Shown piece by piece: positions 35,174 to 59,030 of a stretch of 64,000 bases of DNA; within the stretch, counting starts at the first letter, position 1; every line of letters begins with the position of its first letter. A program made the position numbers and the translations under genes. The stretch lies in IMG/VR virus record IMGVR_UViG_3300021091_000012. One strand, written 5' to 3'. The stretch is from a virus. Below the pieces are notes generated by a model. It saw nothing but the letters and a program-made list of their open reading frames with translations. It had not been told where the DNA came from and did no database searches.

Positions 35174-35570
35174 TGGTGGAGTCGGAGGGATTCGAACCCT
35201 CGTCCATAACGACTAATACTAAGGACTCATTCACAAGCTTATTTAGTTTTCTAACTAACAACTAGTTGGTTGGTTTTTCATCATCGTCAACCTACAACCA
35301 ATGATTCCCGACTCGGATTTTAAGAGCCAGCCGGCGTGCTCGAGCATGCACATTTGTTTATTCTGAGTAAGTGCGACTCAGCGGTTAAGCTGCTACTAGC
35401 AGTTCAGCCTCTTCAGCCACGCGAGTGATTGAAGTTGGGATACTCATCATATCCTCAGAGTTGTATTTGTTTGCGTTTATCGCTTGATAGGTAATTAAGG
35501 ATTTCCAATCTAACCCTGCTTGCATCATCTCAAAGAACTACGGTCATCTGTCAAATCCAGCGTCGACCCC
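35174..35570 (-). ncRNA. ssrA: tmRNA (phage-encoded)
   Basis: 5' GGGGUCGACGCUGGAUUUGAC and 3' GAGGGUUCGAAUCCCUCCGACUCCACCA. Acceptor stem GGGGUCG/CGACUCC with G3-U wobble, discriminator A and encoded CCA; T-arm; 397 nt; internal tag ORF ending LVAA-stop. Confidence 0.95.
35385..35474 (-). other. tmRNA tag reading frame ANKYNSEDMMSIPTSITRVAEEAELLVAA
   Basis: Resume codon GCA after AUAAAC; 29 codons to TAA; C-terminal AA degron. Confidence 0.8.
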
Positions 35571-44422: not shown

Positions 44423-44812
44423 TTAACGTTCGATTCCTAGCTGAGCGAGTGTGACAGGAGTGTAGTTTACATGCTCACACGACACACAATAGTATCGACG
44501 ATCAACGCGTTTAAACCAGTTAAACCCTAAAAAAGTAAACCACTTTTCCACGAACTTTTCGTGAATATGACCGTGAATAATACGCTTGACACGGTGGTCT
44601 AATTCCATTGGATGAACGGGGCAGTGAGACATCCAAATGCCCTTATATCGCATCATTGCTCCTACTTGGTCAACATACTTTAGAAGCTCAGGAATATGCT
44701 TGGGCATATCGTGGTTTCCGAGCACAACTTTCTTACGACCGTTCAAGCGATCCAACAGTGGATACGGTTTAAAAGACTCCATTGTAACGTCTCCTAAAAT
44801 GTAGGTCATATC
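44423..44812 (-). pseudogene. Calcineurin-like metallophosphoesterase, 3' part (interrupted gene)
   Basis: D-MTYILGDV, VLGNHD, MSHCP, IHGHIH; motif I is missing here and lies at 45621-45752. Confidence 0.9.
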
Positions 44813-44983
44813 GATTGGGTGTATGAGAAGGTTTGCTTAAATGAACTTTCAAATTACCACCAAACTTTATAGCAAACTTTCTTATACACCTTGTTATATG
44901 CAGTGTGGATTTAAACAGAAAATGTTAATACGAAGAACCTAACCTTTTTGTTTTATTTTGTGGGAGGAAAATTAAAATTTGAA

Positions 44984-44991
44984 TATTTATA
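44984..44991 (+). promoter_or_regulatory. Late-type promoter motif TATTTATA on the cassette's coding strand
   Basis: Same octamer found upstream of minus-strand late genes; here 22 nt before ATG 45014. Confidence 0.6.
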
Positions 44992-45013
44992 TATAATAAA
45001 ACTATTTAATAAT

Positions 45014-45538
45014 ATGAAACTAAGAAAAATTATAGCAACTACTATACGTGAGTATTTGAATGAACAACAAGAAACTGAAACCAACTTAAATAATAACTTT
45101 AAGAAATGGTTTGGAAATAGTAAAGTTGTTTATAACGGAAAACCACTACCTGTTTATCACGGCTCACCAGAAGAGTTTGATAGTTTTATGGGTGATACAT
45201 ATTTTACACCAGATTATTTTAATGCTGATGGATATGCTGGTGATGGAACGGTTTATGAAGTTTATTTGAGTATTAAAAGACCATTAATTGTAGATGGTAA
45301 AGATAAAAAATGGGATGATATTGAAACAGAATACGGCACATCAACAAGAGAAGTAGTAGCAAATGTTGATAGAAGTAAATATGATGGTATTATCTTTATA
45401 AATATAAAAGATGCTTGGTTTGATGATGTGGATTATCAAGATTCTGATACTGTTTATGTAACATTTAAACCGAACCAAATAAAACACGTTGAAAATGATG
45501 GAACTTGGGATATTGCAGATGATAATATTTTTTCTTAA
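45014..45538 (+). CDS. ADP-ribosyltransferase-like (ART-PolyVal-type) protein, cassette cargo
   Basis: FKKWFGNSKVV--GKPLPVYHGS, YFT, VYEVYLSIKRPL, YDGII, YVTFKPNQIK; leader MKLRKIIATTIREYLNE. The only convincing plus-strand gene in the window. Confidence 0.75.
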   Translation: MKLRKIIATTIREYLNEQQETETNLNNNFKKWFGNSKVVYNGKPLPVYHGSPEEFDSFMGDTYFTPDYFNADGYAGDGTVYEVYLSIKRPLIVDGKDKKWDDIETEYGTSTREVVANVDRSKYDGIIFINIKDAWFDDVDYQDSDTVYVTFKPNQIKHVENDGTWDIADDNIFS

Positions 45539-45620
45539 ATTTGTGCGGTGGAAAAAATAAAACAAAAAGAATATAACCACAAAACTTAATACGAAGAGAT
45601 AACGTAGCATTGCATATAAC

Positions 45621-54165: not shown

Positions 54166-54227
54166 AGCAGGTGTGTTTTATGGGGTAAATTTACTAATTT
54201 TTTTATTTTTAACCACCGGTTATTTCA

Positions 54228-54235
54228 TATAAATA
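54228..54235 (-). promoter_or_regulatory. Late promoter motif TATTTATA heading the leader-protein array
   Basis: Same octamer at 6933, 8863, 13591, 23503, 40063, 41514 and 46870; TACTTATA variants at 35577, 39250 and 46527; each intergenic and upstream of a start. Confidence 0.7.
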
Positions 54236-54596
54236 TGCTCGGTTTTGGATTACCTTTTGTATAAGGGGTGCCACTTTATACTTTATGGCTCCCATCGGGG
54301 GAGGGGAGGTTAAATATAGACACTACACGCAGTGTAACTCGAGTGTCAAAGTCCTATAGGAAAAAAAATTATCATCGCAATGTGTACGCGTATAGTTTAC
54401 AAAAAATAGGGCGATGCCCACCCGGTTTTCACGTAATTATAGGGGGTGTTTTGCCCCGTTTTTGCACCGATTTTCGGGGGGATATCCCCTCGTTATGCAC
54501 CGGTTTTGCACAGGGGGCCCCCCTCAATATACACGGGCTTTACATAGGGGGATACCCCTCTAGTACTCAGTGTGCTATGATGGTACCCCCTACTCA

Positions 54597-58386: not shown

Positions 58387-58408
58387 ATCTTTTATTTTTC
58401 AATTTTTA

Positions 58409-58444
58409 TACCTAAAGGTCGTCCAGGTTTTCCAAATATGCAAC
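58409..58444 (-). promoter_or_regulatory. Early promoter GTTG-N20-GACCTTTAG
   Basis: Repeated motif. Confidence 0.7.
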
Positions 58445-58770
58445 AGCTCACTAAAAATAAAATTCAAAAGTTATGAACCGATGTGTGTTACTGGGGGGGG
58501 GAGGGGGAAGGAGTTATGAAAAGATATGCACAAGTTATGAACCGGGGTGGGTGTATAACTTCTATAGAAAAAATTTGCAAATCGCGCGGCATGTGTGTAT
58601 ACCATCCACCCCCCATATATAATAAACAAACCCTTGTTATGTGTGGTAGTGTCTATCTTATCGTTTCGTGGGTAAACGGTACTATAAAATTGAATGTCTA
58701 TTACAATAGTGATGTTAACCGTGTATTATGGTTAAAGGTATAGACTGATGTGAGTAGCGTACTATGGGTA

Positions 58771-58804
58771 GTTGGGTGTAAACCTTCTCATACACCCAAT
58801 CGTT
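58771..58804 (-). repeat. Truncated second copy of the cassette att arm, forming a short hairpin
   Basis: 58780-58802 is the exact reverse complement of 44812-44834 (23 bp) and continues with the predicted GTT core. Confidence 0.8.
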
Positions 58805-58805
58805 T

Positions 58806-59030
58806 TTATCCTTTTAACATAAAATTATCAACTACTATTAATTGTTTCTCCAGGATTGTTATGAACTTAGACTTAGCTTGTAGTTCATCCTTTAGCAATG
58901 CAATCATCTCCTCCTGCAGCTTTATGATTTGCTGTTGGCTTTCAATCGTTGCTTGTTGCTCTCTCATGTTTAAGTTGGCATCGTTGACGATCATTGTCAT
59001 GTCGTCGATCTCTCTTTGTGTTAAACTCAT
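58806..59030 (-). CDS. Small coiled-coil protein
   Basis: 74-aa heptad-rich ORF whose stop is immediately followed by the att-arm copy. Confidence 0.55.
   Translation of the reverse strand: MSLTQREIDDMTMIVNDANLNMREQQATIESQQQIIKLQEEMIALLKDELQAKSKFITILEKQLIVVDNFMLKG

Follow-up and report, generated by a model that had tools for sequence, protein, structure and literature searches.

An intact ART-PolyVal gene on a hairpin-bounded mobile phage cassette with a late-type promoter-like box and a putative capsid-targeting leader

The stretch of 64,000 nucleotides analysed here, the window, stems from the IMG/VR virus record IMGVR_UViG_3300021091_000012 and contains a single credible plus-strand gene (45014-45538); all other long ORFs of this strand are nested in minus-strand genes, apart from those in a non-coding stretch of GC-rich palindromes (54166-54596). 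The gene is antisense to all its neighbours and its insertion breaks a phage phosphoesterase gene. In the first-pass annotation it had been read as the cargo of a cassette, an ART-like effector that is pre-adapted to late expression and capsid loading, and this interpretation was partly supported: every part of it that is open to computation held up. The recipient is a large T4-like myovirus and its host probably a Flavobacterium-type bacterium. The window also encodes a full-length tmRNA (35174-35570, minus strand; 95 bits with Rfam) with an ARAGORN tag peptide ending in ..AELLVAA.

The boundaries of the cassette were determined by comparison with an empty site. The relative L006, a viral contig in which the genes follow in the same order and protein identity is 91%, encodes an uninterrupted metallophosphoesterase of 173 aa reading ...HKR|DMTYILGDV. 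Since the gene is intact in L006, the insert comprises the 808 bp from 44813 to 45620 (Table 1), and homology with other cassettes begins and ends at these coordinates. A target duplication is absent, the boundary has an ambiguity of 1 nt, and the target sequence on the plus strand is CATATC|ACG. The region is a self-contained mobile cassette which was inserted recently, and we are highly confident that it represents an intact ART-PolyVal gene on a mobile phage cassette. Locus L062 (11230-12361) provides a second, independent case of a coding sequence hit by such an element: a cassette of 1132 bp with a leader-bearing cargo of 281 aa lies antisense inside a repeat-protein gene; ..YYKSLNP.. repeats are present on both flanks, and the joined flanks are open over 133 codons.

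Table 1 Positions of the cassette, its parts and related motifs in the window
Feature	Position	Strand	Remarks
Interrupted metallophosphoesterase, C-terminal part	44423-44812	-	DMTYILGDV...GNHD...GHIH
Mobile cassette, 808 bp	44813-45620	+	inserted between codons R45 and D46 of the minus-strand metallophosphoesterase gene
Left-end hairpin module	44813-44905	+	inner stem 44818-44837 / 44871-44890; inverted repeats I2, I15
Left outer half-site GTTATATGCAGTG	44892-44905	+	
Direct-repeat box (..TTAATACGAAGA)	44920-44936	+	repeat D9; kept in other cassettes
Left arm of the 16/16 inverted repeat bracketing the gene	44944-44959	+	repeat I6; kept in other cassettes
Late-type promoter-like box TATTTATATATAA	44984-44996	+	octamer TATTTATA at 44984-44991
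ORF, 174 aa, ATG start	45014-45538	+	opens with MKLRKIIATTIREYLNE
Leader, residues 1-17 (MKLRKIIATTIREYLNE), ending L-N-E	45014-45064	+	proposed capsid-targeting propeptide
ART-PolyVal domain, approximately residues 27-162	45092-45499	+	H49, Y63, D124
3' module	45539-45620	+	right arm of the 16-nt inverted repeat 45554-45569; direct-repeat box 45581-45597
Terminal half-site CATTGCATATAAC	45608-45620	+	end of the 3' module
Interrupted metallophosphoesterase, N-terminal 44 codons	45621-45752	-	MSVVRFIADLHLGHEN...HKR
Sense TATTTATA boxes (start positions)	6940, 8870, 13598, 23510, 40070, 41521, 46877, 54235	-	
Second motif	42325, 43177, 44344, 46027, 56613, 58416	-	this or the related motif also in L131

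The ends of the cassette recur around other genes. The 5' module (44807-45069, 263 bp), comprising the hairpin, the repeat boxes, the promoter-like box and the leader codons, and the 3' module (45536-45620, 85 bp) were 85-91% identical to ends around unrelated cargo; in another phage contig, such ends enclosed a 190-aa protein, an HExxH protein and a DUF3990-type ART. In the right ends of six cassettes homology stopped exactly at ..GCATATAAC. When right and left end were joined, a near-perfect hairpin of ~105 nt was obtained (-49 kcal/mol, z -8.1; the other strand was weaker) with the outer half-sites ..ATAAC and GTTAT.., and the arrangement ..TAAC-GGTT-hairpin was kept in almost all of the 113 copies examined. 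The junction is an attC-like imperfect palindrome of the integron type with the half-sites GCATATAAC and GTTATATGC, and on the minus strand the crossover boundary could be placed at (G)|TTATAT with an uncertainty of 1 nt. In the window the target's own CATATC stands in place of the left ..ATAAC, indicating that the crossover adjoined that half-site, as in integron attC recombination at secondary sites.

Integron gene cassettes have an attC hairpin and are recombined by IntI with the crossover at G|TT. The phage cassettes resemble them in the imperfect hairpin at the circularised junction, its half-sites and crossover point, the use of a secondary target that mimics a half-site and the occurrence in arrays with unrelated cargo. 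They differ in that the gene is oriented away from the hairpin and preceded by a conserved promoter-like box of its own and in that the carriers are large phages of the virulent type. A further difference concerns the enzyme: an IntI with its specific extra domain was not found in the carriers, only short Xer-like tyrosine recombinases (268-298 aa), one each in 11 of the 25 large cassette-bearing records (including L133 1183-2079 and L134 1468-2274). Their best NCBIfam match was the XerA/integron-integrase model, just below its cut-off, and they reached 155-156 bits on TIGR02249, below the integron-integrase cut-off of 265. Within the 64-kb window, tblastn gave no match to them. These proteins are possibly the recombinases of the cassettes. 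An IS200/IS605-type hairpin transposon was considered as well and rejected, as a Y1 (HUH) transposase (PF01797) was encoded in none of five carrier records, two of which are near-complete. A 23-nt exact copy of the left end of the cassette (GATTGGGTGTATGAGAAGGTTT) is present at 58780-58802 on the minus strand, directly 3' of the stop codon of the gene 58806-59030 and in sense orientation to the resident genes; it comprises only a short hairpin without the remaining module and is perhaps a relic or a recombination site of the resident genome.

To whom the cassette belongs can be read from the distribution of its ends. The 20-mer of the left-end stem was found in 102 stretches of viral contigs (IMG/VR) and in only 18 stretches among 185,579 species genomes, all of the latter on MAG contigs with mutually inconsistent taxonomy. 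The carriers are diverse, their baseplate proteins being 88%, 50% or 32% identical to that of the window or giving no match; the neighbours of close ART-gene homologues are small genes and DNA methylases in arrays of phage type, and the nearest copy of the cassette (L001, 87% nucleotide identity) is located in a different context. Among cultured phages, the region found only one, marginal match at the nucleotide level. The near confinement of the 20-mer to viral contigs, together with the diverse carriers and phage-like contexts, indicates that the element circulates among phages and not among bacteria, as had been proposed from the window alone; bacterial integrons were not where these ends occurred. 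Genes for DNA methyltransferases (D12, C5, N6/N4) recur among the leader-bearing cassettes, themselves without a leader (L003/L004 207-929 and 8824-9777, L001 916-1701, L136 1-1813).

The cargo had been assigned to the ART-PolyVal-like proteins by the motifs VYHGS, YFT, YDGII and QIK, all of which are present in the 174-aa protein, and profile and structure searches corroborated the assignment. The protein matched Pfam ART-PolyVal (PF18760, Tox-ART-HYD2 clade) with an E value of 3.8e-18 and 67 bits (cut-off 31.2), residues 41-162 being aligned to positions 3-136 of the 140 positions of the profile. The family is defined by a His in strand 1, a Tyr in strand 2 and an Asp in strand 5 (PMC5512222). 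In the AlphaFold2 model (29 homologues, pLDDT 86.9) H49 is located in strand 1 (47-51), Y63 in strand 2 (62-65) and D124 at the start of the predicted fifth strand (125-132). H49 and D124 are invariant across the 29 homologues and position 63 is Tyr or Phe, with Phe in several close homologues. A Foldseek search of the PDB gave no match below an E value of 1e-3, but the top 50 matches were all catalytic (ART) domains of the PARP family (probability at most 0.97, E about 7e-3); a sequence search of the PDB with the family profile gave no match at E values up to 10. Realignment to PARP1 845-1001 (VIA) yielded a Z of 7.4 over 107 aligned residues with an rmsd of 4.2; since a Z of about 7, taken singly, is only moderate, it is the consistency of the matches which carries the fold assignment. 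Indeed, an unbiased comparison with 48,161 chains returned almost only ADP-ribosyltransferase folds, among them PARPs, diphtheria-type toxins, ParT, MbcT, Arr and the anti-CRISPR ART AcrIF11 (6kyf). Judged from profile and model, the protein is a predicted ADP-ribosyltransferase of the ART-PolyVal (H-Y-D) type. Compared with the L001 copy, dN/dS was 0.18 (dS 0.40), with 0.23 for the leader and 0.17 for the domain; thus, both leader and ART domain are under purifying selection. A region of chain B of PDB entry 9k3a, a pre-ejectosome protein of cyanophage A4, also aligned to the ART model (Z 5.3, 98 residues); an ADP-ribosyltransferase-like domain is not mentioned in the paper on this structure.

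Next to the ends, the cassette brings its own promoter-like box. The distance from the TATTTATA/TATTTATATATAA box to the ATG is 22 nt, and TATTTATA is also found in sense 4-62 nt 5' of eight minus-strand ORF starts, including those of large ORFs of the tail/baseplate module and of the first gene of the leader array. This confirmed that the only plus-strand gene shares its octamer with the phage's own genes. Overall, 13 sense copies were counted on the minus strand versus ~6 expected, as estimated by ourselves from the base composition, and 6 on the plus strand. A reading on the wrong strand, in which the octamer is merely the reverse complement of the T4 sequence TATAAATA, was rejected, as the census found TATTTATA in sense before minus-strand genes; TATAAATA itself belongs to a second class of motif before ligase-type genes. 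PHROGs gave almost no annotation for the window genes behind the box, so that their "late" status is deduced from the position in the tail module and from an annotated relative. Among cultured phages, the Flavobacterium phage vB_FspM_immuto has the most similar baseplate protein (44% identity); there, the box stands immediately before the genes annotated as tail tube, baseplate hub and tape measure. In the complete carrier genome G002 it precedes the prohead protease gene. By this association, which supports it well, the timing of the box is predicted to be late. Two stretches of ~400 nt (54166-54596 and 58390-58800) are non-coding and contain many GC-rich palindromes (e.g. GAGGGGTATCCCCC and GAGGGGGGCCCCC) in a genome that otherwise has 37% GC; one of them carries the TATTTATA box which heads the leader array.

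The box is a regular part of leader-bearing cassettes. A survey of genes behind the same hairpin across the viral contigs, as suggested by the first-pass annotation, revealed the exact box 12-26 nt upstream of 25 of the 27 type-A and all 15 type-B leader genes (40/42 in sum). Leaderless genes behind this hairpin have a TTG...TAnnTTTG promoter instead, which we take to be the Bacteroidota-type consensus. Some homologous ART genes have neither box nor hairpin (L136; L004 6001-6534). Six leaderless genes, among them those for the ligase and the phosphoesterase, are preceded by the second motif, GAyCTTTAGGTATAAA..AGAGAT-ATG, and a related motif (TTTAGGTAT / TTTAGGTATCAATAATTAAAAC) stands before ~20 small genes of the early region of immuto; the second motif probably represents the early/middle class of promoters in the lineage. 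Mobile regulatory cassettes reportedly occur in T4-type phages as PeSLs (promoter-early stem-loops; Arbiol et al. 2010). Like the PeSLs, the elements described here combine small accessory genes of T4-like phages with stem-loop and promoter repeats that mediate gene shuffling. Unlike them, they have a late-type box and not an early, host-type promoter, and they also encode a protein leader. Moreover, the insertion in the window took place at one exact position within an unrelated gene, for which homologous exchange between repeats offers no explanation.

The leader is likewise a conserved unit that is combined with different proteins. It was retained in more than 150 metagenomic homologues of 165-180 aa, close ones included, and in diverged paralogues leader and C-terminal tail were nearly identical with only ~40% identity in the middle. 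On unrelated cargo (six ART-PolyVal proteins, one DUF3990 protein, two anthrax-lethal-factor-like (ATLF-like) zincins, one GNAT protein and many proteins without a family) the tag ended in an invariant x-N-E. Among 24 distinct leader coding sequences the diversity at codon positions 1, 2 and 3 was 0.20, 0.13 and 0.40; the diversity at third positions, two to three times that at the others, indicates that the peptide and not only the DNA is under selection. AlphaFold2 placed the leader in a low-confidence helix (residues 2-22), with a pLDDT below 50 at residues 18-24; it lies outside the ART fold, structural matches to which begin near residue 25. A second leader class, MSEDIRKMIDKVKNFKQFVNE, was found behind the same hairpin and box on unrelated cargo (loci L023, L028, L034, L036, L079 and others). 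A full-text search of the literature for four leader strings found no paper describing such leaders.

These leaders are similar to the capsid-targeting sequence (CTS) of T4, MKTYQEFIAE, after which gp21 cuts at L/I-x-E (PMC9026906, PMC3012670); residues 4 and 7 of the CTS were mapped to targeting and residues 8 and 10 to processing (PMC9026906). The cassette leader (..A-T-T-I-R-E-Y-L-N-E17) has I, Y, L and E at these four positions, and the last nine residues of the MSEDIRKMIDKVKNFKQFVNE class closely resemble KTYQEFIAE of T4. Aligned in this way, ATTIREYLNE, VKNFKQFVNE of the second class and the resident MIKLKHMLTE agree: Glu occupies position 10, position 8 is aliphatic, and positions 4 and 7 are hydrophobic or aromatic. 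This similarity has to be read with the fact that [LIV]-x-E is short and common by chance in Lys/Glu-rich proteins. About 20 resident genes have leaders ending in L/I-x-E, e.g. MIKLKHMLTE or MKTSELRRIIREEVRNMLRE. The match that had been noted between the cassette leader and the array at 46-54 kb stands for this terminal pattern but does not extend to the leader class, since the class of the cassette (..TTIREYLNE) occurs nowhere else in the window. An S77 (gp21-type) prohead protease is encoded in 15 of the 25 carrier records and in four of the five with a completeness of 90% or more. Two relatives of the window phage, G004 (baseplate protein 50% identical) and immuto (44%), have it. Within the 64-kb window neither head genes nor the protease (by tblastn) were found, so the protease is assumed from the relatives.

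Two known systems suggest what such a tagged enzyme may do. With Alt and the internal proteins IPI-III of T4 the cassettes share a short N-terminal aliphatic-x-Glu tag on unrelated small proteins including an ADP-ribosyltransferase, hydrophobic or aromatic residues at the mapped targeting positions, a putative late-type promoter, an S77 protease in the lineage and variable gene arrays. They differ in the enzyme, since Alt, ModA and ModB have an R-S-E active site and the cassette ART belongs to the H-Y-D/PARP-like clade, and it would work like Alt only by analogy. The putative cassette tag is also longer (17-21 residues), has another sequence and travels together with its promoter as a discrete DNA cassette, in phages of a Bacteroidota-type host. 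ART-PolyVal domains are further known from the polyvalent proteins of phages and conjugative elements, which are predicted to be delivered with the invading DNA (Iyer et al. 2017, PMC5512222). Family (PF18760), H-Y-D pattern, co-occurring zincin peptidase and GNAT proteins and nearby DNA methylases are the same, but the cassette ART is a stand-alone protein of 174 aa with its own leader and not a module of a giant protein, and each cassette effector is a separate, swappable gene.

In one unit, the cassette combines a hairpin recombination end, the promoter-like box TATTTATATATAA and a protein in which a 17-residue leader ending in L-N-E is connected by a short flexible linker to an ART-PolyVal domain. 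We propose that the ART gene would be transcribed late, the leader would dock the protein into the prohead core like the CTS of T4, the S77 prohead protease would cut after Glu17, and the mature enzyme would be ejected with the DNA and ADP-ribosylate a host target at an early stage of the following infection. Packaging, cleavage at LNE and injection as a counter-defence or take-over factor are suggested by the analogy to Alt and the internal proteins of T4 and by the context, and we consider this full chain of events slightly more probable than its failure at any step. Whether the tagged enzyme leaves the cell in the virion is the point at which another reading departs: it could be a late, non-packaged intracellular effector like ModA and ModB, with the leader as docking or regulatory helix for another partner such as a chaperone, an inhibitor or a membrane or nucleoid site. 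The prediction of the leader as an amphipathic helix of low confidence only, its length of 17-21 residues compared with the ten of the T4 CTS and with the resident MIKLKxxLxE leaders, and the absence of the box from some ART homologues would agree with this. Against it speaks a tag with an invariant x-N-E end on unrelated cargo and a fit to the four functionally mapped CTS positions; this tag is tied to the promoter class of structural genes, occurs in phages with a T4-type prohead protease and heads the kinds of cargo for which delivery in the virion, as parts of polyvalent proteins, has been predicted. We regard this reading as unlikely.

The cassette could also be of no use to this particular phage. 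An antisense insertion that disrupts a phage gene may be a recent selfish arrival, with promoter and leader adapted to the donor lineage only and with a cargo that may be unexpressed or unrecognised by the packaging system of the recipient. A conserved phosphoesterase is indeed disrupted antisense to all neighbours, the nearest relative is free of the cassette, the leader class is unique in the window, and the nearest copy (87% at the nucleotide level) has a different context. On the other hand, ORF, box and both ends are intact, a dN/dS of 0.18 over a dS of 0.40 speaks for long-term constraint on the gene family, the same octamer serves the phage's own tail-module and leader-array genes, and the resident leaders have the same terminal pattern; such a useless insertion appears rather improbable. 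The cassette may be pre-adapted to this phage; its leader is of another class than the resident ones. That the insert is not a DNA element with a functional gene at all but a self-splicing intron or another element acting at the RNA level has hardly any probability left. Clean interruption of the coding sequence without target duplication, nested inverted repeats of long range on both sides of the ORF and a 5' exon that would end in U favour this reading; but an intron would have to end in C instead of G to keep the reading frame, the ORF is antisense to the interrupted gene and under purifying selection, and no group I or II model matched, neither at the Rfam gathering thresholds nor at E values up to 10. 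The lack of a match to any intron model and the presence of the same ends around other genes, in cassettes with other cargo in intergenic arrays, identify a DNA element, and with junction nucleotides that do not fit, the intron was rejected.

Taking late expression, capsid loading and injection as the preferred reading, a wider picture can be drawn, which we put forward tentatively and hold to be somewhat less than evenly probable. Large T4-like phages of Flavobacterium-type hosts may run an integron-like exchange of hairpin-bounded effector cassettes, each consisting of late promoter, capsid tag and enzyme and possibly moved by Xer-like recombinases; the window would then show a unit that has just jumped to a secondary site in a phage with different tag classes. 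The pair of filled and empty site gives the exact boundaries of the cassette and makes both the recombination reaction and the tag directly testable. If the tag loads capsids, the cassettes would be a natural, transferable kit that arms phages with injected enzymes, its cargo being ADP-ribosyltransferases, zincin peptidases, acetyltransferases and many unknowns. This would extend the principle of T4 Alt and the internal proteins to an uncultured, widespread group of phages and tie protein addressing to a unit of DNA mobility, and it would provide a catalogue of candidate counter-defence and take-over effectors, each flagged by a simple sequence signature.
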